Shown here piece by piece: positions 998 to 33,901 of a DNA stretch of 64,000 nucleotides (position 1 is the stretch's first letter; each line of letters starts with the position of its first letter). The DNA comes from Ferrithrix thermotolerans DSM 19514 (GTDB taxonomy: Bacteria > Actinomycetota > Acidimicrobiia > Acidimicrobiales > Ilumatobacteraceae): contig CAMASN010000005.1 of NCBI GenBank assembly GCA_945861025.1, forward strand, positions 7,239-71,238, written 5' to 3'. Under the pieces are notes generated by a model. It worked only from the letters and a program-made list of their open reading frames with translations. It had not been told where the DNA came from and did not search any database. A program made the position numbers and the translations under genes.

Positions 998-1000
998 GGA

Positions 1001-1750: not shown

Positions 1751-1837
1751 GTGGGGCAGTCTACGCAGATGGCCATTCGATTAACACTACGTACATAGGA
1801 GAAATGGAGTCATCGGTCACGATGGCTGCCATGAGGC

Positions 1838-7761: not shown

Positions 7762-7798
7762 AAAGCGTCAGCGCACGGTTGACGTGCGCTGACGCTTT
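7762..7798. terminator. Perfect 16-bp stem / 5-nt loop hairpin between convergent genes (copy 2 of the 43-bp element)
   Basis: AAAGCGTCAGCGCACG-GTTGA-CGTGCGCTGACGCTTT. The 3' arm overlaps the stop codon (7797-7799) of the minus-strand GT2 gene. Confidence 0.6.
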
Positions 7799-9769: not shown

Positions 9770-9802
9770 GTTGGCCTCCTTGGGTAGACGTGCGTGCGGT
9801 GG

Positions 9803-12018: not shown

Positions 12019-12121
12019 GTGCCCTTCACCCTGCTGACAAAGCCCTCCTGAGGGCTGCAACAGTCTAGAGGTGAGCGCAGACCCGAGTGGGCCACTGACG
12101 GCCTACTAGTGTGAGGTCTTC

Positions 12122-12859: not shown

Positions 12860-13256
12860 GCAGTGCATCGATCTCTCCCCTTCGGTAATCCCGCAGACAC
12901 TCACTGTTGATACATCGCCTTCGGTTCGATGGCTTGATCACTTTCGACATCGCAGATGGACAACACGGCAGCACAAGAATTGCCAGCACGATTGCGTGGT
13001 GCGGCTATGCGCGCCAGTTGGTGCTGTCTCCTACGCACTTGTCCGATATTCAAAGGCAGTTGTTCTTCTGTAGCCAGCGTTACCTGCTCGCCAACGGCGC
13101 ATTACTCCCGTTTCTCGGATGGAACTCGAAGTCGCATGCATAGGGGATCGACGTGCAGTCGATCGCGATGCGGTAGTACACAATCGACAGTTGCATCTCG
13201 AAGGTTGCGGCACGTCTGAAAGCGGCTTTACCGACAGCAGTTTTTGAGGCCTTGCT

Positions 13257-14903: not shown

Positions 14904-15033
14904 AACGCGGCCTCTTTCCCTCATTTGTGTTCGCCCGTGTCAGCAAGGCGCCCCACTCTGCAGACAGCAGACCCGCAGAACGATTTCGATCCCGGATTAG
15001 GGTGAAGTCGCGCCGCCATCAAATCTGCTGGTG

Positions 15034-17652: not shown

Positions 17653-17786
17653 TGTTTCAGATCCTAGGTTCGCCGCGAGTACGAGTACAGGCGTTGTGGG
17701 TAGCGGTGTTGATCGTGAAACTGTGAACGAACGGGGTGCCGCCGACCCGCCAACAGCCGACCTGTTCGGGTCCTTGTTGACTCACG

Positions 17787-18983
17787 TCAGGACCCCATCG
17801 ACCACTGTGGGCGCATTGTCACGAGCCCGCCGGTCTCATAGGGCTTGCCCGACATGACATCGAAACGCAAGGCCAGATGCACGTTGTCGTATTCGTGTTG
17901 CCGATTGAAGTCGGTGACGGTGGTGTGAATGTCGTAGGTGCCAGGAAGCAAACCGACCGCATCCATCACGATGTCTACGTGCCCTTCGCCCGAAACCATT
18001 TCGGGAATAAGGCCAACGTCGCGAGTGCACGGCGCGGTCACGGTTGCGCCGCCGAGGCTCTCGATCTCGAACCCAAAGATGGGCTTCGGAACCGGCTTGG
18101 CGGCGGTGTAGTTCAGTCGCAAACGAATGTTGTCCGATGTGCGGAAACGCTTGACGGGTTCGGGGTTGTCGCCCACGAATAGCTCGACCGACGAGATCTG
18201 CAGTTCGCCTGACCCGCGGCGCACGCTGCCATCAACGTTGCGGTTGCGATTGCCCAGCATCATCTCGGTGTAGGCGTCGACAAGATCTGATGGGTCGCCT
18301 TCGCCTGTGATGACGCCGTGGGTCAACCAGATGGCGCGGTCACACATGTTCTTCACGCTGCCGAGGTCGTGGGTCACCAAGATGATGGTGCGCCCGTCGT
18401 TACGGAACTCAACGAACTTCTCGAGGCAGCGCTGCTGAAAGGTCACGTCGCCCACAGCAAGAATCTCGTCAACGATGAGCAAGCGCGGATCAACGTTGAT
18501 GGCGACGGCGAACGCCAAGCGCACGTACATGCCCGACGAATATGTCTTCACGGGTGCATCGATAAAGCTCTCCAAGCCGGAGAACTCGACGATCTCGTCG
18601 AACCGTGCCGCAATCTCGCGGCGTCCCATTCCGAGAATGGCGGCGTTCAAAAAGATGTTCTCGCGGCCGCTGAGTTCGGGGTGGAATCCGGCGCCCAGTT
18701 CGAGCAGCGCCGACATGCGCTTGTGCACCGTGACGGAGCCAGCATTGGGCTGCAAGATGCCGGCCATGCACTTGAGCAGCGTTGATTTGCCCGAGCCGTT
18801 TTGTCCGATGACGCCGAAGACTTCGCCTTCGTTCACGGTGAACGACACATCGCTGAGTGCGGTGAACTCTGCGAACTTGTTACGCCCACCAGTTGCGATG
18901 AGTTGCTTGATCGAATTGGTCTTTTCGCTATGCAAGCGGAAGCTCTTGGTGAGGTGCGATACCTCGAGGGCGATGTTGCTCAT
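17787..18983 (-). CDS. wzt: Polysaccharide ABC exporter ATP-binding protein Wzt/TagH type, with a ~145-aa C-terminal extension
   Basis: GQNGSGKSTLLK, SSGMYVRLAFA, LLIVDEILAVGD. After about aa 250 there is a beta-rich tail (ELQISSVELFVGD...RLRLNYTA...FGFEIE...HVDIVMD...YDIHTTV). Confidence 0.9.
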   Translation of the reverse strand: MSNIALEVSHLTKSFRLHSEKTNSIKQLIATGGRNKFAEFTALSDVSFTVNEGEVFGVIGQNGSGKSTLLKCMAGILQPNAGSVTVHKRMSALLELGAGFHPELSGRENIFLNAAILGMGRREIAARFDEIVEFSGLESFIDAPVKTYSSGMYVRLAFAVAINVDPRLLIVDEILAVGDVTFQQRCLEKFVEFRNDGRTIILVTHDLGSVKNMCDRAIWLTHGVITGEGDPSDLVDAYTEMMLGNRNRNVDGSVRRGSGELQISSVELFVGDNPEPVKRFRTSDNIRLRLNYTAAKPVPKPIFGFEIESLGGATVTAPCTRDVGLIPEMVSGEGHVDIVMDAVGLLPGTYDIHTTVTDFNRQHEYDNVHLALRFDVMSGKPYETGGLVTMRPQWSMGS

Positions 18984-18986
18984 GGT

Positions 18987-19784
18987 CTACATCTCCTCGG
19001 CGAACTTGGGGGAGAGACGGTTGAAGACCCACGCACCCAGAAAGAACATTCCAAAGCCAAGCACCATGAGTTCGACAAGGTTGATCACGCCAGGAATTCG
19101 ACCGTCGTACATGATGTCGTGCGCAGCTGTGATGAAGGCACCCGTTGGTCCGTAGCGGGCGAGATACTGAAGTGCTGGCAAGCCGACTGAGGCTGGAAAG
19201 TAGATAACCGGGGTGGCGTAGAAGAGCAGTTGAGACCCGATGGTCCACAGGTAGTTCACGTCGTGGAAGAACACGTTGGCTGCCGAGAGCGCAAGCGCTA
19301 CGCCGGTAGTGAACAGCGCAAGCATGCACATCACGGCAATCATCGCTGGAAGCCACGGCAGCACCATGTTGCCGCCGATGAGCATGGCAACAGTGAGGAC
19401 GCCCAGCTCAATCATCAGCGTCACGAACTGGGCAATGACCACAGAAAAGACGAGATGCTCGTGGGGGAACTGCACCTTCTTGATCAGCCCGGCGCCGCCT
19501 TGCACCGCACCGATGGATACGCCCACGGTGATCGCAAAGAAGTTGAAGGGCAACAGGCCCGAGAGAAAGTACAACGGAAAGTTGGCGAGCCCGCTGGGGT
19601 CGCCGGCCAAAGGTTTTGCCTTGAACACGTAGCGGAAGATCACGGTGAAGATGACCATCTGCGACAGCGGGTTGAGCAGGCTCCATGCCCAGCCCAGTAC
19701 CGATTTCTTATATCGCGTGCGCAATTCTTTGAGCGACAGCAAATACAACAGGTTGCGGTGCGCCATCGCGGACTTGAGAGACAT
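18987..19784 (-). CDS. wzm: ABC-2 type polysaccharide exporter permease Wzm
   Basis: 265 aa. N-terminus LLYLLSLKELRTRYKKSVLGWAWSLLNPL, typical of ABC-2 permeases, with about 6 TM segments. Ends 3 nt upstream of the wzt start. Confidence 0.9.
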   Translation of the reverse strand: MSLKSAMAHRNLLYLLSLKELRTRYKKSVLGWAWSLLNPLSQMVIFTVIFRYVFKAKPLAGDPSGLANFPLYFLSGLLPFNFFAITVGVSIGAVQGGAGLIKKVQFPHEHLVFSVVIAQFVTLMIELGVLTVAMLIGGNMVLPWLPAMIAVMCMLALFTTGVALALSAANVFFHDVNYLWTIGSQLLFYATPVIYFPASVGLPALQYLARYGPTGAFITAAHDIMYDGRIPGVINLVELMVLGFGMFFLGAWVFNRLSPKFAEEM

Positions 19785-19864
19785 GAAGACCTCACTCTAG
19801 TTGCGTAGGCATCTGCCACGTGCTCAATCCAAGTGACCCGCCGAGGCGGCTAGCCTGTGCGCTT

Positions 19865-20194
19865 ATGCCAGCCAAGCCCGGTAGCGACAACACCAACGAC
19901 AACGAACTCGCCCAACTGCGTGCCGAAGTCGATCGCCTGCGTGCTCTCGTGGGACCCAACGAGCAGACATATATTCAGCTCAAGACCGAGATCTGGAGCG
20001 CCCGCGATGCGGTTATCGGCGCCGAAGCCGAGAACGGGTTGCTGCGCGGCCAAGTGAAGTCAATGCATGCGGCGGTTGCCCCAACACTGATGATCCATCA
20101 GTTCCTCAAAGACGAAGTGCTCTTGCGTGTCAAGCGGTGGCGTACCTACGTGCGTCGGTTGGTCATCAAGGTCGGCAAGAAGTTGCGCCGATGA
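19865..20194 (+). CDS. Small coiled-coil protein of unknown function
   Basis: MPAKPGSDNTNDNELAQLRAEVDRLRALVGPNEQTYIQLKTEIW... Its stop overlaps the ATG of the next GT gene (ATGA at 20191-20194). Confidence 0.5.
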   Translation: MPAKPGSDNTNDNELAQLRAEVDRLRALVGPNEQTYIQLKTEIWSARDAVIGAEAENGLLRGQVKSMHAAVAPTLMIHQFLKDEVLLRVKRWRTYVRRLVIKVGKKLRR

Positions 20195-21786
20195 CCCCGT
20201 TGTTCTCGGTGCTCACGCCGGTGTACGACCCGCCGCACGACGTGCTGTTGGCGATGATCGATTCGGTCGTTGCGCAGACCTTCGACAACTGGGAACTGTG
20301 CCTTGTTAACGATTGCTCTACCGATCCAGTGATCGCTTCGTTACTCGATGCCGCTGCTCGTTCTGACAAGCGCATCAAGGTCATTCACCGAAGTGAGAAC
20401 GGTGGCATCATCGCCGCCTCGGCCGATGCACTGGCAATGGCCACTGGCGACTTCGTTGCGTTACTCGACCACGACGACCTACTCAACGAAGTAGCACTTG
20501 CCAGTTTCGTCGAGGTGCTCGGCATGCATCCCGACATCGACTACTCGTATAGCGACGAAGCGCATCTCACGCCATCGGGTCAGATTGTCACGCCGTTCTA
20601 TAAGCCCGATTGGTCGCCCGAGCGCCTTCGCAGCCAGAACTACTGCACGCACTTTTCGGTGTTGCGCCGCTCGTTGGTCAACGAGGTAGGTGGGTTCCGT
20701 CCGGGCTTCGAAGGCAGTCAGGATTACGACCTGATTCTGCGGGTCACCGAGAAGGCGCGCTACATCCATCACTTTCCGTACCTGCTCTACATCTGGCGGC
20801 AGCTACCAACTTCGGTGGCCGGCAACAAAGACGCCAAGCCCTACGCATATGAGTCGGGCAAGCGAGCTCTGCAAGATCACGCCGACCGCTTGGGCATCGC
20901 CGCCACGGTCGAGATGCAAGAGCCGCTCGGCACCTATCGCTTTCGTCGGCACCTCACGCGTACACCTCGCGTCAGCGTGATCATCCCTACTCGCGGCACG
21001 AGCTCAATCGTGTGGGGCGTCACGCGCAATCTTGTTGTTGAGACCGTCGAAAGTTTGATCGAGAAAGAGAGCTATCCAGATCTCGAGATCATCATCGTGG
21101 CCGACACGCCAACGCCACCGTCGGTTATTCATGCGTTGCAACGCATCGGCGGCGATCGAGTGAAGATCGTTTGGTACGACCGTCCGTTTAACTTCAGCGA
21201 GAAGATCAATCTGGGTGCAGCGCATGCAACCGGCGAGCTGTTGCTGATGCTCAACGACGACATGCAAGTGATCACTCCCGATTTTTTAACCGACATGGTG
21301 CCGCTTGCGCTCGAAGATGGCGTGGGCATGGTGGGTGCCAAGCTGTACTTCGCCGACGGCACCATTCAGCACGCTGGCCACGTGTACAACGGCGACCCCT
21401 ATCACGCCATGTTCCGTTGGGCAGGCAATGAGCTCGGGCCATTTGGTCTGTTGGTGGTGCAACGCGAAACCGTTGGCGTCACCGCCGCATGTGCGTTGTT
21501 GCGAATGGACGTGTTCGAGCAAGTGGGCGGGCTCACGCCGATGCTGCACTCGAGCTACAACGATGTCGACCTCAGTTTGAAGGTGCGTTCGCAAGGCCAT
21601 CGGGTCGTTTGGACACCGTACGTAGAGCTGTATCACTTCGAGAGCCAGACCCGTGAGCCTCACCCCAGCGACGAAGAGCACGCGTTCATTCGCAGCCGCT
21701 GGCGCGAGCAGTTGGTCAACGACCCGTACTACAACCACAACCTCGCGCCTCGCCGCGACGACTGGGTGAGCAAGGCGTTGCGCTGA
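20191..21786 (+). CDS. Glycosyltransferase with two GT2 domains
   Basis: Domain 1: FSVLTPVYDPPHDVLLAMIDSVVAQTFDNWELCLVNDCSTD...LLDHDD. Domain 2: VSVIIPTRGTSS...EIIIVADTPTP...LMLNDDM. Confidence 0.85.
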   Translation: MTPLFSVLTPVYDPPHDVLLAMIDSVVAQTFDNWELCLVNDCSTDPVIASLLDAAARSDKRIKVIHRSENGGIIAASADALAMATGDFVALLDHDDLLNEVALASFVEVLGMHPDIDYSYSDEAHLTPSGQIVTPFYKPDWSPERLRSQNYCTHFSVLRRSLVNEVGGFRPGFEGSQDYDLILRVTEKARYIHHFPYLLYIWRQLPTSVAGNKDAKPYAYESGKRALQDHADRLGIAATVEMQEPLGTYRFRRHLTRTPRVSVIIPTRGTSSIVWGVTRNLVVETVESLIEKESYPDLEIIIVADTPTPPSVIHALQRIGGDRVKIVWYDRPFNFSEKINLGAAHATGELLLMLNDDMQVITPDFLTDMVPLALEDGVGMVGAKLYFADGTIQHAGHVYNGDPYHAMFRWAGNELGPFGLLVVQRETVGVTAACALLRMDVFEQVGGLTPMLHSSYNDVDLSLKVRSQGHRVVWTPYVELYHFESQTREPHPSDEEHAFIRSRWREQLVNDPYYNHNLAPRRDDWVSKALR

Positions 21787-21787
21787 G

Positions 21788-24052
21788 GTGGCGGTACTCG
21801 CGGGTGAATCGTGTCGAGTGTGCCTCATCGTGCCCGCTGGTCAATGGAACCTCGTGCCCATCACGAGCGCGCTTCGTCAGCATCATCCTCGCTGGTCGAT
21901 CTCAGCGGTCTGGTGTGGCGACCCGCACCTGCGTCCAACGCTGCCAACGTCGTTGGCGATTGAATGGTGCGATGTCGACCTCGCCGAGCCAACTGGTGCG
22001 GGGTGGGGGCGGCTGATTACGGCGCTGCCCGCCCGCCTCTATGAATGGTGTCGCGCGGCGGTGGCTGTCGAGCGACTTCTCGACCGAGCCGACGAGTCGG
22101 TTGTGGTCCTGCGCGTCGGTTCGGTAGCTGTGTTGGGTGATTGCTCGTCGATGGTGAGTGCCGATGTGGCGACCTTGATTTCTCGATCCTCCTCTGTGCT
22201 TCCAAGCGATGGGTTGGCGCCCAAAGAAGGCGATCTCATCGAGCGAGGCGAGCACTGCACCGTTGCCGCTGCGTTTCGACCAGGAGCGCAAGGTGCACTT
22301 GTGTGGCTGTATCAACAACTCGGGTGCGCCGCTGGCGAGGTCGGTCCGTGGCTCGATCGTATGGGTCGGATGTTTGGTGCGGGTCACTGTGTTGACGAAC
22401 GAATCGGTGCTGGCCCGTGGCGGGCACCTACCGCAATCGCACCGACCCTCGTCGATATTGATCTCATCGATCGCGACCAGCCGTGGTTCTTCTCGTTCGA
22501 TGGCGCGCCGACCCGGATGCGTCTGTCTGATGACTCAGTATTGGCCGCAGCGGTGCAATCAGCGACAGCTCAGATTGAGGGCGCCGAGGCTCCGATCAAA
22601 TTGCCGGGAGGCATCGCGGTGGACCACGCGATGCGCACGCTGATGCGCGCAGCGATCTTGGCGTGGCGTCAGGGCGTCGCACAGTTGCCACCAGAGCCGT
22701 TTAGTACTCACAACGCTGCGTTCATGCGCTGGCTTGAGTCACCCGAACCTGGTGGCGCAGATATCGGGCGTTACTGGTTGGCCGTACGTGACCAGCGTCC
22801 CGATCTGCAGGCAGCGTTTCCGCATGCACGCAGCGTCGACGCAGCGAGATTTGCTGAGTGGGCCGATGCGAGTTGGCGGCTCGAGGGTCGTTCCGCGTTG
22901 CTTGCGTCCGGCGTTGGTGCGTGCAATGCAATTAAGTCGATCGGCTTCGATTCGGCAGGTGTCAACGTGCTCGGCTACATCGACTTCGATCAGAGTCAGG
23001 GGCATATCGCGCGCGAGTTGGTGGCGGCCTTCGGGGCGGCAGGTGTTGGCGTGTCGGCGCTGAACCACAATCGTTCGCTTGGGGCTCGCCGTAGCGACGA
23101 AGCTGCGACGCCCCGAGAAGCTCGCTTCGCCACAAACATCGTTGTCGTCAACGCTGATCAATTTGAGTTCGTTGTGTCCGATCACGGCGCCACCTTGCTC
23201 GATGGTCGCTACACAATCGGATACTGGTTCTGGGAACTCGAACACATCCCGGCGACGATGCTGCCAGCAATCGATCACGTAGACGAAATATGGACCGGCT
23301 CGCAGTTCGTTGCCGATGCATTCTCGCGGGTTACCGACAAACCAGTTCGATGCGTGCCGCTGCCGGTGGCTCAGCCGCAACCGTCGCAGCGCACGCGTGC
23401 AAGCTTCGGATTGCCTAATGACCGCTTTGTGTTTTTGGCAACGTTCGATCAGTTCAGCGTGCCCGAACGTAAGAACCCATTTGGGGTGATCGAGGCGTTC
23501 ACCCGTGCGTTCGCCGATGGCGAAGGGCCGTTGCTGTGGATCAAGACCCTCAACGGCGACAAGGGGTGGCAGCAGCACGAACGGTTACTCCTGGCTGCGT
23601 CGGGCCGTAGCGACATCATCGTGCGTGACGAGCATCTCAGCCGTCCCGATCAGATGGCGGTGTTGCAGGTTGCCGACTGTCTCGTCTCGTTGCACCGATC
23701 CGAAGGCCTTGGCCTTCATTGCGCCGAGGCAATGTGGCTGCGTAAGCCGGTTATCGCAACGCGCTATTCGGGCAATCTCGATTTCATGGACGACTCGTGC
23801 GCTGCAATGGTCGACTACGAGCTGGTGCCAGTGCGGCACGGTCAGGGCATCTATCCACCTGAGGCGATGTGGGCCGAACCCGATGTCGAACAAGCTGCGG
23901 CACACATGCGCGCGTTGGCGTCAGACTCGGCGCTGTGTTCTCGACTTGGCGCGAGCGCCCGCGAACGAATGGCGTCGCAAGCTTCTCAAGCGGAGACCGG
24001 CCGCATGATGGTCGAGTTAGCAACCAGACATTTCACGAAGGGAAGCATCTGA
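21788..24052 (+). CDS. Large glycosyltransferase: ~480-aa N-terminal region of unknown function plus a C-terminal GT4 domain
   Basis: GTG start 2 nt after the previous stop. C-terminus FLATFDQFSVPERKNP...VSLHRSEGLGLHCAEAMWLRKPVIATRYSGNLDF (GT4 EX7E-type region). Confidence 0.8.
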   Translation: MAVLAGESCRVCLIVPAGQWNLVPITSALRQHHPRWSISAVWCGDPHLRPTLPTSLAIEWCDVDLAEPTGAGWGRLITALPARLYEWCRAAVAVERLLDRADESVVVLRVGSVAVLGDCSSMVSADVATLISRSSSVLPSDGLAPKEGDLIERGEHCTVAAAFRPGAQGALVWLYQQLGCAAGEVGPWLDRMGRMFGAGHCVDERIGAGPWRAPTAIAPTLVDIDLIDRDQPWFFSFDGAPTRMRLSDDSVLAAAVQSATAQIEGAEAPIKLPGGIAVDHAMRTLMRAAILAWRQGVAQLPPEPFSTHNAAFMRWLESPEPGGADIGRYWLAVRDQRPDLQAAFPHARSVDAARFAEWADASWRLEGRSALLASGVGACNAIKSIGFDSAGVNVLGYIDFDQSQGHIARELVAAFGAAGVGVSALNHNRSLGARRSDEAATPREARFATNIVVVNADQFEFVVSDHGATLLDGRYTIGYWFWELEHIPATMLPAIDHVDEIWTGSQFVADAFSRVTDKPVRCVPLPVAQPQPSQRTRASFGLPNDRFVFLATFDQFSVPERKNPFGVIEAFTRAFADGEGPLLWIKTLNGDKGWQQHERLLLAASGRSDIIVRDEHLSRPDQMAVLQVADCLVSLHRSEGLGLHCAEAMWLRKPVIATRYSGNLDFMDDSCAAMVDYELVPVRHGQGIYPPEAMWAEPDVEQAAAHMRALASDSALCSRLGASARERMASQASQAETGRMMVELATRHFTKGSI

Positions 24053-24264
24053 TGGCACTGATGTCACGACTGAGCCGACTCGTCGGTGGCCGTTCTAACG
24101 CGCAAACCACCGCCGGTTACCGTGAGGAGTTGCGGGCGCTACACATAAAGGTTGGGCGACTTGATGAAGAGCTTCACCAACTTCGCTCACAGATGCGCGA
24201 AACGGTCAACGATCTCGGCGATCGCATCGGCTCGGTGGCGGAACGGCTTAACTCGGCCCCGTAA
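24052..24264 (+). CDS. Small coiled-coil protein of unknown function
   Basis: MALMSRLSRLVGGRSNAQTTAGYREELRALHIKVGRLDEELHQLRSQMRETVNDLGDRIGSVAERLNSAP. The ATG overlaps the TGA of the preceding GT gene by 1 nt. Confidence 0.45.
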   Translation: MALMSRLSRLVGGRSNAQTTAGYREELRALHIKVGRLDEELHQLRSQMRETVNDLGDRIGSVAERLNSAP

Positions 24265-24283
24265 CGCGCCGATAGATCAGGTG

Positions 24284-26935
24284 ATGTTTCTTCGCCGGTC
24301 TGCGCTCGTACTTGTTCTCACCGTGGGCCTGCTGCCGTTAGCTGCGCAGCCGGCCATCGCCGTTACTCCTGGCACCCAAGTAGACCTCACGGGGGCGCTC
24401 TCGCCGCCTGCAAACCTGTCGACATCGGGCGACTTCGCCACCGACACGTTCAGCGATCCGTGGGACTTCTCGAACGCCGAAGACATCATCCCCATCGTCG
24501 GCGCTGGTGTCGCAAACGCCGATGCTGTTGATCTCTCTGGCGGTGTGCTGACGGCCGCCACCAGAAACTATGCCGAGCTGCGATTGCTGATGAACTGGTC
24601 GCAAACCAGTGCGGTACTGCCATGGGGGCACGACGGATGGAAGCGCCCTATCGATGGTGGGCGCTACACGCAGGTCACCATGCGCATTCGTGCCGAAGCC
24701 GATATGAGCTTCGCGATTCGATGGTGGAACGCTGCGGGCCAAGAGGGTTTGATTGGCTTCAACCTGTTGGCTACTCCCGGATTCCAGAACGTGCATTTCG
24801 ATCTCACCGATCGCAGCAACTACAAGGCCGCTGGGGCTGCTGCGGTGTGGGGCGGGCACATTGTTCGCTTTGAACTGTTCCGCGGCATCGCTCTTGCTGG
24901 CGGTGACCCAGCAATCAACGTGCAGATCGATTGGGTGCGCCTGCATCGTGCCGGCGCATCGCAAACTCCGCCCACCGGAGTGCCGCGTCCAGTGGTGATC
25001 ACGCCTAACGAAGAAGGCGGCGCTGACTACGCCACCGTCGAGCGTGGAAACCCGTGGGACTTTGCAGGCATGGACGACGTGAACCTCACCAACGACGTCG
25101 CCTTTCTTTCCACCGCGAGCGGCGACCTCACCGGCTCCAGCGTGCGTAACGACCCGTTCATTGGATTGGCCCTCGGACCGCCGTTGAACACCGATCGCTA
25201 TCACCACCTCACTGTCGACGTTTGCTACAACGGTGGCTTCAGCCTCGGCGGCGGCTCGGGTGAAGGCATGGTTGGTCGCATGGCGTGGATGCCCGCTGGA
25301 ACATGGACAGAGACGCAGGACTTCATTGTGTTCCCCGGATGCCACCGGATGTCGATCGATATGTCCACCGCCCCGCCGGGGGCGATACATGACCAGAACA
25401 GCGGCATCGTGTCGGGTTGGCGTGGCCAGCGCCCCACGCGTCTGCGGTTCGACCTCAACGAAGACCCAGGTGTGCGAGCGTTCAACCTGCGTGAGATTCG
25501 CTTGGCCGACGACGCAGCCTTCAGCTCGAGTTACCCGATCACGTTTGCCGATGCCGCCGGCGCAGCCAACGCCAAAGCCGACATCTATGTCACCACCACC
25601 CGTGGCAGTTACAGCGGAACGCAGATTGCCAGCAACATCTCGGTGGTCGGTGGGGTCAACACGTTCAACTGGAACGGCACCGATGTTGCGGGTTCAGCAA
25701 TGGCCAACGGCACCTATTGGGTCTACATCGTGATGCGTAACACCTCGGGTTCTGGCGTGGGCTACGCGTCGGGTCCGTTGCGTCAAGAGAAGCCGGTGCC
25801 TCCAACGCCGAGTTACTTTGTGCCGCTCACACCGTCCCGCTTGCTCGACACTCGCACTGGAGAGGGCGGCAACATCGTTCCGTTGAACACGGGGGTCTTC
25901 ACCGAACTCAACGTGGCGGGTCTTGGCGGTGTGCCCGCCGTTGGCGTCACCGCGGTGGTGATGAACGTGACCGTTACCGAGCCAACATGGTTTGGCTTCA
26001 TCACGGCGTGGCCATCGGGCGAGGCGCAACCGTTGGTCTCAAACCTCAACTTCGTGCCCGGCCAAACCGTACCAAATTTGGTCACGGTGAAACTCGGGGC
26101 CAACGGCAAAGTGAACCTGTTCAACTCAATCGGCAGCACCCATCTCATCGCCGATGTGGCCGGTTATTACACCGCTTCGCCTCCGCCGTCGGGCGGCCGA
26201 TTTACCGCAGTGACTCCAGCTCGATTGCTCGACACCCGCGATGGCACCGGCACTGGTGGCAACACGGCTCCCATCGGGCGGGCCGCATCTATCAACCTCT
26301 CTGTCACGGGCGTTGGCGGAGTTCCGTCAACGGGTGTTTCGGGCGTGGCGTTGAACGTGACGGTTGATCAGCCCACTGGCCAGGGATTCGTTACGGTGTG
26401 GCCCGCCGGGGAGGCGCGGCCGAATGCGTCGACACACAACTATGTGCCCGGTCTCACGGTGGCCAACTTGGTGGTCTCAAAGGTTGGTGGCAACGGCCAG
26501 GTGAGCATCTTCAACTCGGCTGGCTCTTCGCATGTGGTTGCCGATGTCATTGGCTACTTCTCGGCGCGTGGTGGAGCATTCGTTCCTGTTGCACCGCAAC
26601 GACTCGTCGATACTCGCGATGGCACTGGTGTGCGCCCGGGTGGCATTGGCCAACGCCAGTCGTTGGGCTTACCGATGACTACAAATAGTCCGGTGCCCAG
26701 CGGAGCCACTGCAGTCATCGTCAACGTCACCTCGGTGAACAGTTCGGCGCCGTCGTTTGTCACGGTGTGGCCCACAGGTTCGACAATGCCGTTGGCATCA
26801 ACGCTGAATCCTGTGATTGGTTGGCCGGTGCCAAACCAGGCGTATCTTCGCCTCGGCCAAGACGGGTCGCTACAGGCCTACAACAACGCGGGCCGCACCG
26901 ACCTCATCGTCGACGTGTTCGGCTACGTGCTCTAA
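24284..26935 (+). CDS. Secreted multidomain protein: signal peptide, two 'PWDF' jelly-roll-like modules, an FlgD-Ig-like domain, and 3 tandem ~120-aa repeats
   Basis: Start at MFLRRSALVLVLTVGLLPLAAQPAIA (signal peptide). Internal duplication DPWDFSNAED.../NPWDFAGMDD... NTFNWNGTDVAGSAMANGTYWVYIV is FlgD-Ig-like. The C-terminal triple repeat is listed as a separate feature. Confidence 0.8.
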   Translation: MFLRRSALVLVLTVGLLPLAAQPAIAVTPGTQVDLTGALSPPANLSTSGDFATDTFSDPWDFSNAEDIIPIVGAGVANADAVDLSGGVLTAATRNYAELRLLMNWSQTSAVLPWGHDGWKRPIDGGRYTQVTMRIRAEADMSFAIRWWNAAGQEGLIGFNLLATPGFQNVHFDLTDRSNYKAAGAAAVWGGHIVRFELFRGIALAGGDPAINVQIDWVRLHRAGASQTPPTGVPRPVVITPNEEGGADYATVERGNPWDFAGMDDVNLTNDVAFLSTASGDLTGSSVRNDPFIGLALGPPLNTDRYHHLTVDVCYNGGFSLGGGSGEGMVGRMAWMPAGTWTETQDFIVFPGCHRMSIDMSTAPPGAIHDQNSGIVSGWRGQRPTRLRFDLNEDPGVRAFNLREIRLADDAAFSSSYPITFADAAGAANAKADIYVTTTRGSYSGTQIASNISVVGGVNTFNWNGTDVAGSAMANGTYWVYIVMRNTSGSGVGYASGPLRQEKPVPPTPSYFVPLTPSRLLDTRTGEGGNIVPLNTGVFTELNVAGLGGVPAVGVTAVVMNVTVTEPTWFGFITAWPSGEAQPLVSNLNFVPGQTVPNLVTVKLGANGKVNLFNSIGSTHLIADVAGYYTASPPPSGGRFTAVTPARLLDTRDGTGTGGNTAPIGRAASINLSVTGVGGVPSTGVSGVALNVTVDQPTGQGFVTVWPAGEARPNASTHNYVPGLTVANLVVSKVGGNGQVSIFNSAGSSHVVADVIGYFSARGGAFVPVAPQRLVDTRDGTGVRPGGIGQRQSLGLPMTTNSPVPSGATAVIVNVTSVNSSAPSFVTVWPTGSTMPLASTLNPVIGWPVPNQAYLRLGQDGSLQAYNNAGRTDLIVDVFGYVL
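25817..26932 (+). repeat. Three tandem protein-level repeats (25817-26200, 26201-26578, 26579-26932) of an unnamed module
   Basis: Each copy runs F-x-[PA]-[LV]-x-P-x-R-L-[LV]-D-T-R ... N-V-T-[VS] ... F-[IV]-T-[AV]-W-P-x-G ... S-x-[LH]-N ... V-[PA]-N ... [IV]-[AV]-D-V-x-G-Y. Confidence 0.75.
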
Positions 26936-28806
26936 CGAACTCGGTAGATGTAGCGCTCGCCAGCGGTGTTCGGTTCGTCGACAAGTTGCAGACACACACC
27001 ATCGGCTGCCTGCTCGGTGATCACATACGTGATGCCCAGTTTTTGTAGCGCGGCATCGCACGTTGGTGTGGTGATCACGATCTGATCGGTCACGGGTAGG
27101 GCAATGTCGATGCCCGGCAGTTCGTCGTTGATCTCCATCGACACCATTGCGAAGCGATCCCATGTGTTGCGGTTATCGGCTGCCGGATCAAGCTTTGTCC
27201 ATGCGGCTGGATCGGCGTACCAACTCACGTGCGTGGCGGTTGGTACTCCGGATGCGGCCAAGATCGATAGCGCATGCCCGGCTCCGGCGCCGAGGGCTGC
27301 CCATGCAGCCGACTCGTTGCCAACGCGCTCGCGTTGAATCTGCAGCATCAGTGGGTCGCGCGTGATGGGCTCGAGACCCACTTGAATTGGGTTGATTCGC
27401 GCTGATCCGATGAGCAAGAACGCGCATGCGCTGCCAAGCCCGAGCACGACTCGACCGTTCAATATTGCAGCGACAACCAAGCTGATCAGCGCCAGCAGAA
27501 TCAGGATTCGAGGGTTCCCTACCGGTGCGTCTTTGATGGTGGTCTGGGCGCCAACCCATCCGGTAACAAACACAAACATGAGCGTGGCGATGAGCACGCG
27601 ATCTCGAGACGGTCGAACGCTTGGGTCGCTGACAATGCGGTGCACATACAGTCCGGCGGCAAGCGCTCCGGCCACCGTGAGCGGCAACATCAAACGATCG
27701 CCGGGAACGCTGGTGAGGCCCAACAGTGATCCCACGAATGAAGGCACAGGCAGCAGTGCCCATGCGGCAAGGATCATTGAAACGGTGAGCACCGCAGCGA
27801 GAGCGCGGCTGGCTTGTTCACGAGATCTGAATCCGCTGAAACCGCCACCCACGATGAGGATGGGCAGCCACAGCATGAGGCCCGACGATGCTTCTGACTG
27901 ATTGGTGCCGTTGTGGTTCGCCATCGGTGCGGTGGTGGCGTACACGTCGTAGGGGGCACCGAACAGCAGGGATGGTCGCGCAACACCACTCGGCGAGATG
28001 CGATGACCTGGGTACACCGAGTTCGAGATGGCCTTCAACGCCACCTGGTGGTCGCGAAGGTAGATGGCCATGACGATGACGAGCACGCCGCCAAACGCTG
28101 CGGCGAACATCGCTACCTGCCGCCACCCGATGAAGGTGCCTCTCAGCTGCGTGAGCGCTATGGCTCCGAAGATCAAACTGAGCGGCAGCAGCCACGGCAG
28201 ATACAGCAGCACGGCGAAGCAACTAGCAACCCATCCAGCGGCAGCGGCAAGCGCGTAGCGTCGGCGGCCGTGGTGTCGGCATGCCATGATGAACAACGCC
28301 AGCATGGTGCCGCCGTAGAGAACCGATAGGCCTGTCGTGGGGATAGCCCACCACACGGTGGCTGGGGCAAGCGTGACCAGCAGCCCCGAGAAAATCGACA
28401 CCCACCGCGAGCGAGTGAGCGCAGCAACGACTGCGTAGATACCCAACAGCGGGCCAAGTGCAACGAGCCACCATTCGATCGCAAAGGCCCGCTCGACATC
28501 GAGCACGAAGTACGACCACGAATGCGGCTTGGCGATGGATGACAACGCCTTCACGGGCAGATCTGAGAGCACGCCGGTGTCGTGAACTCCGACGCCAAGC
28601 TGGGTGGTGGCCGGAAAACTCAGCGCCGCTTGGCGGATCACTAACGGTGTTCGCGTGAGCCATTCGTCGGTGCGGATGGGGCGAGGGGTGAGCGCGGTTT
28701 GTGCCGACGGGTCGGTCTCAGAATGCAGCGCGATGGAACTGCCGCTGACCTTGAACATCCCTAGTACGAAGATGAGGGCCAACACAACAAGGGGAGGGGC
28801 GAGCAT
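26932..28806 (-). CDS. Large polytopic membrane protein with a C-terminal soluble domain; GT-C-like candidate; start uncertain
   Basis: 685-aa track ORF. The hydrophobic core starts at MLAPPLVVLALIFVLGMF, followed by more than 10 hydrophobic segments. The stop overlaps the stop of the convergent secreted-protein gene. Confidence 0.6.
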   Translation of the reverse strand: MLAPPLVVLALIFVLGMFKVSGSSIALHSETDPSAQTALTPRPIRTDEWLTRTPLVIRQAALSFPATTQLGVGVHDTGVLSDLPVKALSSIAKPHSWSYFVLDVERAFAIEWWLVALGPLLGIYAVVAALTRSRWVSIFSGLLVTLAPATVWWAIPTTGLSVLYGGTMLALFIMACRHHGRRRYALAAAAGWVASCFAVLLYLPWLLPLSLIFGAIALTQLRGTFIGWRQVAMFAAAFGGVLVIVMAIYLRDHQVALKAISNSVYPGHRISPSGVARPSLLFGAPYDVYATTAPMANHNGTNQSEASSGLMLWLPILIVGGGFSGFRSREQASRALAAVLTVSMILAAWALLPVPSFVGSLLGLTSVPGDRLMLPLTVAGALAAGLYVHRIVSDPSVRPSRDRVLIATLMFVFVTGWVGAQTTIKDAPVGNPRILILLALISLVVAAILNGRVVLGLGSACAFLLIGSARINPIQVGLEPITRDPLMLQIQRERVGNESAAWAALGAGAGHALSILAASGVPTATHVSWYADPAAWTKLDPAADNRNTWDRFAMVSMEINDELPGIDIALPVTDQIVITTPTCDAALQKLGITYVITEQAADGVCLQLVDEPNTAGERYIYRVR

Positions 28807-28902
28807 TGATCGAGACACTCGGGTTCGGGTGTCTCTGAGCCGCACAGGATTTCCTTCGCTGATGGGTGATACCGGAGGAATCAACTGGCCAAGTCTAGCA
28901 TT

Positions 28903-29274
28903 GTGACCATGAGCGTCATTGTGAAGCAGAGCGCTGTCATCTTCGTGTGCGGGGCAGCATTGCTCGTGCTCACCGTCAGGTTGCTGCATCGCCGCCGCTT
29001 GTCATTCCACTATGCATCGGGCTGGGTGGCGGTGTCGCTGGCGGTCATTGCATCGTCGTTGCTCACCCCGTTGGTTGGCCCTGTTGCCCGGCTGTTCTCG
29101 ATGAGTGGCACAGCAGTGTTTCTTGTGGTGGCGGTTGGTTTCGTTGTGGCGATGTGTCTGCAGTTGTCGATCAGCGTCTCGTTGTTGCACGAGCGTGCGC
29201 GTGACCTTGCCGAGGCCAACGCAATGCTGCGCGCCGAGCTCGATCGTCGCATTCCAGCATCTGACACTCACTGA
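28903..29274 (+). CDS. Small 3-4 TM membrane protein, DUF2304-like
   Basis: 123 aa. Hydrophobic helices, then a C-terminal amphipathic tail LHERARDLAEANAMLRAELDRR. ATGA-coupled to the following GT2, which is the usual genomic context of DUF2304-type proteins. Confidence 0.65.
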   Translation: MTMSVIVKQSAVIFVCGAALLVLTVRLLHRRRLSFHYASGWVAVSLAVIASSLLTPLVGPVARLFSMSGTAVFLVVAVGFVVAMCLQLSISVSLLHERARDLAEANAMLRAELDRRIPASDTH

Positions 29275-30065
29275 TGAAACCTGCTCTCGTACTTATCCCC
29301 GCGTACAACGAAGAGACGTCGGTCGGTGGCATCGTGCAGCGAGTGCTCGCCGCTGGCCTCGACTGCGCCGTCGTTGTCGATGGGTCGGTAGACCTCACAG
29401 CCCGCCGCGCTCGCGAGGCCGGAGCAGTCGTCATCGAGTTGCCGGTGAACCTTGGTATCGGTGGCGCGCTGCGGTGTGGGTTCCGTTACGCGATTGAGCA
29501 TGGCTACGAACGTGTCGTGCAGTGCGACGCCGATGGCCAGCATCCGCCCGAAGACATACCCCGCCTCATCGACGAAGCCGAGCGGCTGAACGCTCACTTG
29601 CTTATTGGCTCGCGCTGGCTTGCGGGCTCTGGCGATTACGACCTGCACGGCGCGCGTCGGTTCGCGATGAAGATGCTGTCGCGGCTTGCGTACTCTCGTG
29701 GGCGCGTGCGCGTGCGCGACTCGACCTCGGGCTTCCGGGTCATCTCAGAGCCCTTGCTCACCGAGTTCGCTCGTTCGTATCCGGCGCAGTTCATGGAGTC
29801 GTTCGAAGTGCTCGTGTCATCGGGCCGCGCTGGGTATCGCGTGTGCGAGGTGCCTGCCGATTTCAGCCAACGTGTAGCGGGCGAAGCGTCAACGAGTTCG
29901 TTCAGAGCCGTCTGGCAGATTGTGCGCGTCGGCATCGGTGCGCTGATGGGCCTTGGCCCGCGATTCAGACCGTTTGCTGAGAATCGCGGCGATGGGGCAG
30001 GTCGTTCAACAGCAACGAACCCTTCTGTCGCGACGCTGCAAATCGACCCCGAACCAGGTCGCTGA
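29274..30065 (+). CDS. GT2 polyprenyl-phosphate glycosyltransferase (DPM1/GtrB-like)
   Basis: LVLIPAYNEETSVGGIV...VVVDGSVDLT...VQCDADGQHPPEDIPRLI. Confidence 0.85.
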   Translation: MKPALVLIPAYNEETSVGGIVQRVLAAGLDCAVVVDGSVDLTARRAREAGAVVIELPVNLGIGGALRCGFRYAIEHGYERVVQCDADGQHPPEDIPRLIDEAERLNAHLLIGSRWLAGSGDYDLHGARRFAMKMLSRLAYSRGRVRVRDSTSGFRVISEPLLTEFARSYPAQFMESFEVLVSSGRAGYRVCEVPADFSQRVAGEASTSSFRAVWQIVRVGIGALMGLGPRFRPFAENRGDGAGRSTATNPSVATLQIDPEPGR

Positions 30066-30888
30066 GCATCTGCACCACGAGGTGCGCACGAACGAGAATA
30101 CGGTGCCTGCACGCCCGTGCTGTGCGAGTCCAACCTTGGTTGAGCGCTCGCGCTTCAAGCGCTCGAGCGAAACCAATCTCTTCGACGAAACGTTGTGAGT
30201 CGGCGGTGAGCGTTGATGTTTGGTTCGACCCATGGCGGCGGTATTCGTAGAGCGGTTGGCGAACGGCCCGCAAGCGCGAGCCGGCGAGCAGCAACGTGGC
30301 CATGTGCTCAAGGTCGAGCATGAACTTCCAGCCGCCATCGAACGGGTCGGCGGCCAGTGAGGCAGCTCGATAACAAAGCGTTGGGCAAAACACGTAGTTG
30401 CCGGCAGCGATTCCAGCCAGTCCGTGATCGCCCACGACGTCGTGATCGGCTGCCGGTCGGCGGATGAGTCGCTTGGCGAGATCGGGAAGGGATCGGGCGG
30501 GTAAGCCGCCGGGTCCGATGATGACGGCATCGGTGAACACGCCGGCAGCATCGGGGTGTGCAGCTGCAGCAGCGAGCACAGCTTCTGCGTAGCCGGGCAA
30601 CAACCGGTCATCAGAGTGCAACAACGTGACGTAGGGCGTGGTGGCGTGGCGCAGACATTCGTTCCAGTTGCCAGCCAGTCCGAGGTTGACCTCGTTGCGC
30701 ACGTAGCTGATGCGGGGGTCATCGAGCGCTGCCACTAGATCTGCAGCGGACTCGGGTCCAGCATCGTCGACGACGATCATCTCCCAGTTCGAGGTGGTTT
30801 GCGCGAGCACGCTGTCGATTGCCTCGCGGAGGTACCCGAGGTTGCTGTAATAAGGAATTGCAAACGTGATCGCGGCTGGGAAAGTCAC
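29965..30888 (-). CDS. Family 2 glycosyltransferase
   Basis: ITFAIPYYSNLGYLREAIDSVLAQTTSNWEMIVVDDAGPE...LLHSDD. The 3' end overlaps the convergent GT2 gene by 101 nt. Confidence 0.8.
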   Translation of the reverse strand: MTFPAAITFAIPYYSNLGYLREAIDSVLAQTTSNWEMIVVDDAGPESAADLVAALDDPRISYVRNEVNLGLAGNWNECLRHATTPYVTLLHSDDRLLPGYAEAVLAAAAAHPDAAGVFTDAVIIGPGGLPARSLPDLAKRLIRRPAADHDVVGDHGLAGIAAGNYVFCPTLCYRAASLAADPFDGGWKFMLDLEHMATLLLAGSRLRAVRQPLYEYRRHGSNQTSTLTADSQRFVEEIGFARALEARALNQGWTRTARACRHRILVRAHLVVQMLSDLVRGRFAASRQKGSLLLNDLPHRRDSQQTV

Positions 30889-30955
30889 TGAGCGCCGAGG
30901 CTAATGCGCCGGTGTGAGCGTGTCGGGCTACGACCGGTTCTCCTAGGCTGGGGCG

Positions 30956-31561
30956 GTGACGTCGAAGCCGCAGCCATCAACCAGCGATGCCGCGTACGCC
31001 CGGCGGTTGCAGCGACTGTCGGCGCGTGGCGGGTGGGCGCGCCGAGTCATCGATCCGCAGATCCCATACCGATGGAATCTGAGGCGCATGCAACCGGGCT
31101 TTGTGCTCGACATCGGCTGCGGAATCGGCCGCAACTTGGCGCATCTCAACGGCCACGGCGTAGGCGTGGATCACAACCCAACCAGCGTTGCTGCGTGTGT
31201 CAGCGGCGGCCTCACGGCTTTCTCTCCGGAAGACTTCGAGCAAAGCCGCTACGCCGAAAGCAACACCTTCGACTCCGTGCTCTTGGCACATGTGGTTGAG
31301 CACATGACCGAAGTCGAAGCTTGTGACCTCATCACTGCGTATCTTGCCTACCTTCGGCCTGGCGGACGTGTGATTTTGATTACCCCGCAAGAACGGGGTC
31401 AAGCGAGCGATCACACCCATGTGCGCTTTGTTGATTACGCCGCGGTGCATGGTCTCGCACGTCAGGTCGGCCTTGGCGTGGTGGCGCTGCGTTCGTTTCC
31501 GCTGCCACGTGTGGCCGGTCGGGTGTTCACCTACAACGAGACGGTTGCGGTCCTCGCGTAG
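30956..31561 (+). CDS. Class I SAM-dependent methyltransferase
   Basis: GTG start. VLDIGCGIGRNLAHL motif I, then LLAHVVEHMTEVEA...GGRVILITP. Confidence 0.75.
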   Translation: MTSKPQPSTSDAAYARRLQRLSARGGWARRVIDPQIPYRWNLRRMQPGFVLDIGCGIGRNLAHLNGHGVGVDHNPTSVAACVSGGLTAFSPEDFEQSRYAESNTFDSVLLAHVVEHMTEVEACDLITAYLAYLRPGGRVILITPQERGQASDHTHVRFVDYAAVHGLARQVGLGVVALRSFPLPRVAGRVFTYNETVAVLA

Positions 31562-31873: not shown

Positions 31874-33901
31874 ATGAGGCGACTCGCCCACATTTGGAGA
31901 ATTGTTGTCACCTTCGCAGTAGCGATGGCATTGACCGGTGGCGCCTTCGCAACCGATGCATTTGCCGACGCAACACCGCCTTTCATTCCTCGCGATGCCG
32001 ATTGGTTGGTCACGGTGAATTACTACCGCGAGATGGCTAATCTGGCGCCAGTAGCAGCCGACCCAGTGTTATCCGCGGGCGCCTACAACCACTCGTGCTA
32101 CATGCTTCAAAACGGCATCAGCCACGACGAGATTCCAGGCGTGCCCGGGTATAGCCCCAGCGGCGATCTCGCTGGCAACAACGGCAACGTTGCGGTGTCA
32201 AGCGCTTACAACGCCACAGCCCGCTCGCATGTTGAGTTGTGGATGACGGGGCCATTTCACGCAATCGGAGTGCTTCGTCCGAATCTAAAAACGGTTGGTT
32301 TTGGCAAGTGCGATGATCCATCTACACCGCTTTGGCATTCGGGTGCAACGCTCGACATCATCCGAGGCCTCGGGCCACAGGTGCCGCAAATCGTTCCGAT
32401 CACGTTCCCGGGCAACGGCACCACAACCAACCTTGATCGCTTTGTGGTCGAGACTCCAGATCCGTTGGGCTTTTGCGGATGGAGCGGCGCCGCCGGTTTG
32501 CCAGTGATTGCGCTGATGCCAGAAGCCCTGGGGTCAGCGCCATCGGCGACGATGCACAGCAGCAGCGGCAACCTTGAGGTGTGTGTGTTGTCGCAACACA
32601 ACACCACGGGTACGGCCCAAGCGATTTTGGCTGGTAACAACGCAGTTGTCGTCGTCCCTCGCATTCAGCTACCCGCCGATAGCTACACCGTGTCGGTTAC
32701 CTCGCGTGCTCGCGTTGTCGGTTGGACGTTTACAGTGGATCCCGCAGCGTCAACCGGCATGCAGCCTGTGCCGACGACGGCACCGCTCGGCAGTGGTGGT
32801 GGTTTGCACCCAGTCGTTCCAGAGCGCCTTGTTGACACACGTTTGAACCGTGGCGCCAGCCGTCTTGCCGACTTCACAACGAAGCGCATTCAGATCGCAG
32901 GCCGTGGCAGCGTTCCGGCCGATGCCCAAGCGATCAGTGCCAACTTCACGGTTGTCGGCCCCGAGATGGGCTCCTACCTCAGCATCTGGAACTGTTCGGC
33001 GAGTCGACCAACGGTGTCAACGCTGAACTTCGATGCCTTACAGACGGTTCCCAACGGAGCGAATGTGCCGCTCGACGCAACGGGCGGCTTGTGTGTGTAC
33101 TCGCCGTCAAGCACCGATTTACTCGTTGACGTAAACGGCTACTTCTCGCCGACGGCAACTGGGCATTTCGCCTCGGTGGCGCCGGCTCGATTGATGGATA
33201 CTCGAAGCGGCCTTGGCGCACCCTCACGCCTTGGCGCATTCTCGACCACGGTGCTTCGGGTGACCGGCGCTGAAGGCATTCCGGTGGGTGCCACTGCGGC
33301 GATGCTCAACGTGACCAGTGTTTTCCCTGACTACAACGGCTTTGTCTCCGTGTACCCGTGTGATGCGCCGATGCCAACAGTGTCGAGCCTGAACCCAGCG
33401 ATATGGACGATCACCCCCAATAACGTGGTGACCCCTATTGCTGCCGATGGAACCGTGTGTATCTACACCTCGACTCCGGTGGATCTCGTGGTCGACATCA
33501 CCGGCTCGGTGAATGACGTAGCGACGCACGACTACGTGCCCGCCGCACCATTCAGGCTCACCGACACCCGCGACCGTCTTCGGATTGAGATGCAAGGCGG
33601 AGTGAACGGCCTCCTAGTGGCACAGGGTCAGACCCTGGTTATCCAAGTGGCTGGCACCCGCGGCATCGCTGCTGGAGCGAAGGGCATCTCTGCCAACTTC
33701 ACTGCCGTGGGCGCGTCCACATGGGGGTATCTCACTGTGTGGCCGTGCGGCGAGCGACCCACCACCTCGGTGGTGAACTTTGTGCCTCTGAACGCGATTG
33801 CCAACGGGGCGCAAGTGCCGCTATCGGAATCGGGCCAACTGTGCGTCTATGCATCGAACCCCACCCACGTGATCATCGACGTCAACGGTTGGTGGAAGTA
33901 G
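31874..33901 (+). CDS. Secreted protein: signal peptide, CAP/SCP (PR-1-like) domain, middle region, and 3 tandem copies of the same ~120-aa repeat
   Basis: The ATG at 31874 is preceded by GAAGGAA. Signal peptide MRRLAHIWRIVVTFAVAMALTGGAFATDAFA. CAP-like VNYYREMANLAPV...SHVELWMTGPFHAIGVLRPNLKTVGFG. The 89-aa upstream extension in the track ORF was rejected. Confidence 0.8.
   Translation: MRRLAHIWRIVVTFAVAMALTGGAFATDAFADATPPFIPRDADWLVTVNYYREMANLAPVAADPVLSAGAYNHSCYMLQNGISHDEIPGVPGYSPSGDLAGNNGNVAVSSAYNATARSHVELWMTGPFHAIGVLRPNLKTVGFGKCDDPSTPLWHSGATLDIIRGLGPQVPQIVPITFPGNGTTTNLDRFVVETPDPLGFCGWSGAAGLPVIALMPEALGSAPSATMHSSSGNLEVCVLSQHNTTGTAQAILAGNNAVVVVPRIQLPADSYTVSVTSRARVVGWTFTVDPAASTGMQPVPTTAPLGSGGGLHPVVPERLVDTRLNRGASRLADFTTKRIQIAGRGSVPADAQAISANFTVVGPEMGSYLSIWNCSASRPTVSTLNFDALQTVPNGANVPLDATGGLCVYSPSSTDLLVDVNGYFSPTATGHFASVAPARLMDTRSGLGAPSRLGAFSTTVLRVTGAEGIPVGATAAMLNVTSVFPDYNGFVSVYPCDAPMPTVSSLNPAIWTITPNNVVTPIAADGTVCIYTSTPVDLVVDITGSVNDVATHDYVPAAPFRLTDTRDRLRIEMQGGVNGLLVAQGQTLVIQVAGTRGIAAGAKGISANFTAVGASTWGYLTVWPCGERPTTSVVNFVPLNAIANGAQVPLSESGQLCVYASNPTHVIIDVNGWWK
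32804..33898 (+). repeat. Three tandem protein-level repeats (32804-33166, 33167-33532, 33533-33898) of the module also found at 25817-26932
   Basis: PERLVDTR / PARLMDTR / PFRLTDTR openings, N-[FV]-T, [WY]-[NP]-C, S-x-[LV]-N, C-[VI]-Y, D-[VI]-[NT]-G closings. Confidence 0.75.

Follow-up and report, generated by a model that had tools for sequence, protein, structure and literature searches.

Two secreted proteins closed by the same triple repeat

We analysed a 64,000-nucleotide stretch of Ferrithrix thermotolerans DSM 19514 (contig CAMASN010000005.1 of assembly GCA_945861025.1), hereafter the window, whose close relatives are metagenome-assembled genomes (MAGs) of Ilumatobacteraceae. At a glycan locus in this window lie the genes of two secreted proteins, A (24284..26935) and B (31874..33901), which share an unnamed repeat module. 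Protein A comprises 883 amino acids (aa), starts with a putative Sec-type signal peptide and devotes its final 372 aa to three tandem copies of the module; protein B comprises 675 aa, carries a putative signal peptide and a CAP head, and ends in 365 aa that likewise consist of three copies. Their parts are as follows.

24284..24361, + strand: putative signal peptide of protein A, aa 1-26, MFLRRSALVLVLTVGLLPLAAQPAIA, with an AxA site after its hydrophobic core, read from the translation
24362..25816, + strand: head of protein A, aa 27-511, with two 'DPWDF'-type segments and a FlgD_ig-like Ig domain, without a named-family match
25817..26200, + strand: module copy A1, 128 aa, aa 512-639, from repeat comparison and the AlphaFold2 model of the triple
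26201..26578, + strand: module copy A2, 126 aa, aa 640-765, from repeat comparison, the single-module model and Foldseek
26579..26932, + strand: module copy A3, 118 aa, aa 766-883, reaching the C-terminus, from repeat comparison and the AlphaFold2 triple
31874..31966, + strand: putative signal peptide of protein B, aa 1-31, read from the translation
31967..32803, + strand: head of protein B with a CAP/SCP domain at aa 47-150 (PF00188, E 3.2e-09)
32804..33166, + strand: module copy B1, 121 aa, two Cys, from repeat comparison and BLASTP
33167..33532, + strand: module copy B2, 122 aa, two Cys, from repeat comparison and BLASTP
33533..33898, + strand: module copy B3, 122 aa, two Cys, reaching the C-terminus, from repeat comparison and BLASTP

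An initial annotation, made from the sequence alone, had described the tail of protein A as three copies of 128, 126 and 118 aa and had assigned the same triple to the end of protein B. Translation and repeat comparison confirmed the former. The latter was borne out by a BLASTP comparison of A copy 1 with protein B, a non-circular check on the shared module, which returned three separate matches (E 5e-18, 3e-17 and 4e-15) at 35-38% identity. Across the six copies of both proteins, 16 columns are invariant, and a hidden Markov model (HMM) built from these copies and searched against the six-frame translation of the window found the module in no open reading frame (ORF) besides A and B. Each module of protein B contains two Cys, which the modules of protein A lack. 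In the head of protein A, the FlgD_ig match in Pfam (aa 457-482) was sub-threshold only.

A module without a named family

The initial annotation had also left the module outside any named family, and there it stayed: HMM searches against Pfam-A and NCBIfam returned only noise at E<=1, and sequence and profile searches of PDB sequences gave no match at E<=10. Plasmid-borne relatives are labelled 'hypothetical' by PGAP or are named after other domains, and the literature that we searched contained no description of the module. The CWB2 profile (PF04122) matched neither A nor B nor the triple (Pfam, E<=1), while its positive control, a protein with a related head that is described below (P0297), was detected in three stretches at E 8e-42. 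The SLH profile (PF00395) did not match the module either; here the positive control was the ORF upstream of P0297 in contig L059, detected in three stretches at E 1e-29. Furthermore, neither the C1q, TNF and BclA families nor the carbohydrate-binding module (CBM) families of Pfam matched the module. S_layer_C (PF05124) reached 35 bits summed over the repeats of a six-copy family member (P0121, aa 640-672) and was absent in eight other members; this match is probably a short-motif artefact.

A large actinobacterial family that follows a rule of three

Searching with the triple retrieved at least 4,207 proteins, and a single-repeat profile retrieved at least 39,165 clusters at 50% identity with E<=1e-3, 13,756 of them at <=1e-30. 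The named sources are almost all monoderm Actinomycetota, including Ilumatobacteraceae, Acidimicrobiales, Microthrixaceae, Streptomyces, Kitasatospora, Nakamurella, Phycicoccus, Curtobacterium, Arthrobacter and Frankiales; two MAG records bear other labels. The number of copies is almost always three, six or nine. Exactly three copies were present in all 120 of the 120 best matches to the triple and in every intact module ORF of 50 genome loci. The 150 best matches to the single-repeat profile included 146 newly retrieved proteins; 116 of these have three copies, the others carrying six, nine, or three together with a degraded three. Of these 146 representatives, 90 carry the unit at the C-terminus, 40 at the N-terminus behind the signal peptide and 16 internally.

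The heads joined to the triple are diverse. They include peptidases (S8, M4, M6 and M10), propellers (NHL, RCC1, PQQ and FG-GAP) and partners of the carbohydrate-active enzyme (CAZyme) type (GH18, GH43, GHL15 and NPCBM), together with CAP, DUF1501, cutinase, SpoIID, arylsulfotransferase, a GmrSD_C nuclease-like domain and cupredoxin; adhesin-like partner repeats are also found (cadherin-like, PKD, TIG, Big and fn3). The combination of a CAP head with the triple, as in protein B, is a recurring architecture among the matches to the triple. None of the 50 partner families listed is a known wall-binding module, and no C-terminal LPXTG motif or membrane anchor was seen in 266 module proteins. The picture in the initial annotation of a discrete three-copy module in the manner of SLH and CWB2 is upheld by copy numbers of three, six and nine, by the many unrelated secreted heads and by placement at either protein end.

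Module genes also tend to cluster, with at least two module ORFs within about 21 kb in 23 of 51 loci. In Nakamurella sp. UYEF19 (L045, 5595..19535), three adjacent ORFs carry one triple each, one of the frames being about 2,670 aa long; we detected no glycan gene closer to these three ORFs than 10 kb. On the Curtobacterium plasmid pW21 (L060, 5863..9072), a 1,069-aa protein bears the triple near its N-terminus and a cutinase domain at its C-terminus, and its gene sits within a conjugation-type cluster encoding a SCO6880 family protein, a TraM-recognition coupling protein and a relaxase.

The triple is predicted to be a compact assembly of jelly rolls

AlphaFold2, run on the triple with a 103-sequence alignment, predicted a compact, rigid all-beta structure (predicted local distance difference test score, pLDDT, 96.5; predicted template modelling score, pTM, 0.93). 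The single module A2 was predicted as an eight-strand jelly roll (pLDDT 95.4). Foldseek found no close solved relative of the module. Its best PDB match was the fibre tip of Bdellovibrio Bd2133, a trimeric beta-sandwich (8ok3/8ond; template modelling score, TM, 0.58-0.60; root-mean-square deviation 4.3-5.0 A), a weak match at 8% identity and E 8e-4 to 2e-3. The BclA C-terminal domain (TM 0.44-0.46, E ~1e-2) and the N-terminal TNF-like lectin of BC2L-C (TM 0.37-0.40) were weaker still, and a trimeric phage cement protein was also among the weak neighbours. Membership in CBM4/6/22/29 was rejected, with TM values of about 0.39-0.48, no Pfam match and mostly non-CAZyme heads. For the whole triple, only multi-jelly-roll proteins were found, all at low TM except a giant-virus BclA C-terminal domain-containing protein (TMq 0.54). 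The structure prediction and Foldseek search suggested in the initial annotation thus yielded a jelly roll in a confident model, but weak matches only, with TM no higher than 0.60.

Because these structural neighbours include trimeric tips and the copies come in threes, sixes and nines, the most economical reading of the model is that the triple forms a single-chain pseudo-trimer, a threefold packing that we infer. In the Bd2133 tip, a pocket lies at the trimer interface, and related TNF-like tips bind N-acetylglucosamine (GlcNAc) between protomers (PMC10769870).

Three equivalent copies with a fixed polar constellation

We compared 648 repeats, taken from 214 family proteins with three clean copies and from the window proteins A and B. 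Identity between copies was 61-63% inside a protein and 48-52% for same-position copies of different proteins, and the same-position copy was the best match in 36% of cases against 33% expected by chance. These identities indicate that the three modules are kept equivalent, as expected of a symmetric trimer-like unit, and rule out an ancient position-specific triplication of the kind seen in CWB2.

Among the 648 repeats, R8, R13 and D115 are conserved in 100%, D11 in 99%, and N52, N80 and N89 in 98%; T12, T54, T65, S77 and several Pro and Gly are also conserved in each module. This fixed charged and polar set in every copy points to a binding site or interface network rather than a passive spacer. 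An enzymatic role is unlikely, since all three copies of this small jelly roll retain the polar set and no match to a catalytic fold was obtained. N52 and T54 (94%) form an N-x-T motif in every module, which has the form of an N-glycosylation sequon. A basic charge signature suited to binding an anionic polymer was looked for in the isoelectric points (pI) of the triples and was not found.

The protein A head carries a classical wall anchor in another lineage

CWB2 and SLH domains are established three-copy, non-covalent wall-polymer anchors (PMC4973711; PMC5817068), and in Clostridioides difficile the locus responsible for the CWB2 ligand borders the cwp cluster (PMC4973711). We found 46 homologues of the protein A head. 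In one of these, P0297, the head is 32% identical to that of protein A (aa 37-499 against 33-476, E 6e-49), and the three CWB2 repeats that gave the positive control above begin at the same junction where the triple of protein A starts. The gene upstream of P0297 itself ends in three SLH domains, those of the SLH control. Other lineages join the A head either to three CWB2 repeats or to other unnamed C-terminal regions. On contig L059 (Logan SRR21412971, 77% G+C), the triple-SLH gene (2..919) lies directly upstream of the gene for the A head with three CWB2 repeats (981..3341), so that two classical triple anchors stand side by side in an actinobacterium-like contig.

Together, this exchange of the triple for CWB2, the diversity of heads, the placement at either protein end, the lack of any other anchor and the clustering of module genes support a role in localisation or anchoring.

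The glycan neighbourhood belongs to A and B

Family scans of the ORFs around proteins A and B identified the following features.

7797..31561, no strand assigned: ABC-transporter-type glycan locus, the context of A and B
15034..17652, - strand: 872-aa fusion of an FkbM methyltransferase, a coiled-coil-like region (Tropomyosin match, aa 245-332) and a family 4 glycosyltransferase (GT4)
17787..18983, - strand: Wzt with a Wzt_C domain
18987..19784, strand not given: Wzm
26932..28989, - strand: DUF7657/DUF7654 membrane protein

The locus further encodes two nucleoside-diphosphate-sugar (NDP-sugar) epimerases/dehydratases and a UDP-glucose dehydrogenase, as well as two further methyltransferases, a PMT_2-like protein and DUF2304. 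There are six GT2/GT4 glycosyltransferase genes, one of them the FkbM fusion, and they include one GT2, a double GT2, a GT4 and two more GT2. A pyruvyl-transferase such as CsaB, the partner enzyme of SLH systems, was not found by family among about 45 window ORFs scanned. The FkbM/coiled-coil/GT4 fusion beside a Wzt_C-bearing Wzt resembles WbdD and Wzt of E. coli O9a, where chain capping, a length ruler and cap-recognising export are combined. The DUF7657/DUF7654 gene is convergent with the protein A gene, overlaps its stop codon by four bases and is kept beside A in the closest relatives (L006-L008 and L012).

The initial annotation was therefore right to place the module in a wzm/wzt glycopolymer locus, since Wzm, Wzt with Wzt_C and glycosyltransferases all surround A. 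It had gone on to propose that the repeats bind the polymer made by the neighbouring genes and had suggested surveying other genomes for an association of the module with wzm/wzt. Our genome survey used the A triple as the query and returned mostly orthologues, which makes it a biased test of family-wide context. Synteny of A orthologues (57-95% identity) and B orthologues with the double GT2, the GT4 and AceE was seen in about 35 loci of Acidimicrobiales, including one from a Microthrixaceae MAG. In many of these loci, the glycosyltransferases and AceE are kept and no Wzm or Wzt lies within 10 kb. Most of the distant paralogues (L044-L054) lie among unrelated genes, several on short contigs. 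With these orthologue loci, and with the four module genes of other or no head considered below, a family-wide link between the module and wzm/wzt was rejected.

This contrast between A or B and the other heads indicates that the glycan neighbourhood is a feature of A and B, probably through their heads, rather than of the module. Moreover, triples remain 45-50% identical across actinobacterial classes (Acidimicrobiia against Kitasatospora), which speaks for a ligand of wide distribution more than for a polymer specific to one locus; if there is a ligand, peptidoglycan or a widely distributed epitope is the likelier candidate. Both the conservation across classes and the restriction of the glycosyltransferase neighbourhood to A/B orthologues speak against the polymer of the neighbouring genes. 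The cargo-plus-anchor arrangement proposed for the two proteins survives in outline, through the CWB2 exchange, the head diversity and the absence of a sortase or membrane anchor; its ligand from the neighbouring genes finds no support across the family.

Beyond the glycan locus, the rest of the window is housekeeping. It includes, at 51033..52781 (+ strand), a 582-aa ORF in which a LipB-type lipoyl(octanoyl) transferase domain (aa 24-218) precedes a radical-SAM lipoyl synthase domain (aa 298-508); this apparent LipB-LipA fusion adjoins the pyruvate dehydrogenase (PDH) E3 and E2 genes.

A proposed surface-retention unit and its alternatives

We propose that three equivalent eight-strand jelly-roll modules, fused in one chain, would pack as a rigid pseudo-trimer, much as the tips of C1q/TNF-like and Bd2133-type proteins do as homotrimers. 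Such a unit would be portable, moving between secreted proteins of Actinomycetota. It may bind a glycan of the cell envelope non-covalently, be it peptidoglycan or a wall-polymer epitope of wide distribution, through the invariant Arg, Asp and Asn of each module, probably at or near the module interfaces, and otherwise unanchored exoproteins would thereby be kept on the producing cell. We put the chances at about even that the triple acts as a portable retention unit, a single-chain pseudo-trimer of jelly rolls that holds secreted proteins to the envelope of actinobacteria through wall glycan, as an analogue of SLH and CWB2 with an unrelated fold. A broader version is somewhat more doubtful and is offered tentatively: a phylum-wide surface-display system of Actinomycetota, in which a pseudo-trimeric jelly-roll lectin would fix dozens of exoproteins per genome to a conserved wall-glycan epitope, as a counterpart of SLH and CWB2 that evolved separately on a C1q/TNF-like scaffold.

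Several observations weigh against this proposal. Stand-alone proteins exist that consist of a signal peptide and the triple only, indicating that the unit can act alone, which is not required of a pure anchor. A tblastn search of 50,697 phage genomes found no module copy, so that actinophage endolysins apparently do not use the module as a wall-binding domain. Module genes with another head or none, where they lie on long contigs, stand among unrelated genes in four of four cases. The three copies are not differentiated by position, unlike those of CWB2, and the pI of the triple varies (median 6.4; A 8.2, B 5.5) with no uniform charge signature. Finally, the Foldseek likeness is weak, with E values of about 1e-3 or worse and identities of at most 12% (about 13% for BclA variants and CBMs) at the TM values given above.

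The alternative that survives best, though we consider it unlikely, is a lectin or CBM-like module for external ligands, such as environmental polysaccharides, the surfaces of prey or neighbours, or substrates, which would bring the head to its target. The jelly-roll fold with its CBM4/6/22/29 and TNF-like lectin neighbours fits this idea, as do the CAZyme heads (GH18, GH43, GHL15 and NPCBM), the stand-alone secreted triples and a weak partial match to the module in an RHS-annotated protein; in addition, recognition of other cells is known from Bd fibre tips with a similar fold (PMC10769870). However, most heads are not CAZymes, and proteases, nucleases, sulfatase-like proteins, propellers and adhesin-like repeats are better explained by localisation. 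Adhesin-like heads need a cell anchor and no other is present, and the same head elsewhere carries CWB2.

It is improbable that A and B are instead surface glycoproteins modified by the adjacent locus, with the triple as a structural or self-assembling body. The synteny of A/B orthologues with glycosyltransferases across Acidimicrobiales would suit this explanation; the PMT_2-type protein and the large DUF7657 membrane protein could transfer glycans outside the cell, and the N-x-T motif is conserved at 94-98% in every module. S-layer glycan (slg) clusters likewise adjoin S-layer genes, and those of Geobacillus combine wzm/wzt and methyltransferase-glycosyltransferase fusions beside the S-layer gene. 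Nevertheless, most of the family members that were checked lack glycan genes nearby, the N and T of the motif, spaced at i and i+2 in a beta-strand, point to the same face and can be structural, and no oligosaccharyltransferase family was identified. Modification by the locus also leaves the CWB2 exchange and the head diversity unexplained.

Very improbable is a unit without a ligand that would serve as a scaffold for stability or spacing, or as a C-terminal domain for sorting or secretion: its location at the very C-terminal end of about 60-90% of members and its compact beta-sandwich, as in the C-terminal domains of the type IX secretion system (T9SS), are outweighed by N-terminal or internal placement in 56 of 146 representatives, by the lack of an LPXTG motif or hydrophobic tail, by an invariant charged and polar constellation that goes beyond Gly, Pro and hydrophobic residues, and by a strict triple rule that a sorting tag does not need.

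Surface retention by the triple would matter in several respects. Little is known about how non-sortase high-GC Gram-positives, especially uncultured freshwater Acidimicrobiia, retain proteins on their surface, and a family of tens of thousands of sequence clusters without name, structure or function is a large annotation gap. If the unit is a wall anchor, the destination of many secreted proteins annotated as 'hypothetical' in Streptomyces, Micrococcales and Acidimicrobiia would be explained, actinobacterial biotechnology would gain a new surface-display tag, and a third independent three-in-one wall-binding unit would hold a general lesson on anchor evolution. The fused-trimer design is also of interest to protein engineering.

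Comparison with known systems

Among known systems, CWB2 of the C. difficile Cwp proteins shares with the module its occurrence in threes at the N- or C-terminus of diverse secreted heads (PMC4973711), and in both cases the genes are clustered as paralogues and can adjoin a wall-glycopolymer locus (PMC4973711). In contrast, the module is predicted as an all-beta jelly roll of about 120 aa, whereas a CWB2 module has about 90 aa and no sequence match to it, and CWB2 repeats have diverged by position (PMC4973711) in a way that the module copies have not. The ligand of CWB2 is a wall polymer linked to peptidoglycan, and CWB2 needs all three of its repeats to bind it. SLH is likewise a portable anchor of three tandem copies and acts as a pseudo-trimeric wall-polymer binder with conserved Arg residues (PMC5817068); its units are helical, of about 55 aa, carry a TRAE motif and bind pyruvylated secondary cell-wall polymer, and the module has no sequence or fold relation to them.

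On the structural side, the tips of Bd2133, BclA and BC2L-C are beta-sandwiches, as the module is predicted to be, and the known ones work only as trimers with pockets at the protomer interfaces (PMC10769870). At 8-13% identity and Foldseek E values of about 1e-3 to 1e-2, homology of the module to these trimeric tips is not established. The known tips consist of three separate chains on a trimeric stalk, whereas the module occurs as three units fused in one chain with monomeric heads. Jelly-roll CBMs resemble the module in size, in its predicted beta-sandwich topology and in being portable on secreted enzymes; they vary in copy number and reside mostly on glycoside hydrolases, whereas the module follows a rule of three and is joined mostly to non-CAZyme heads.

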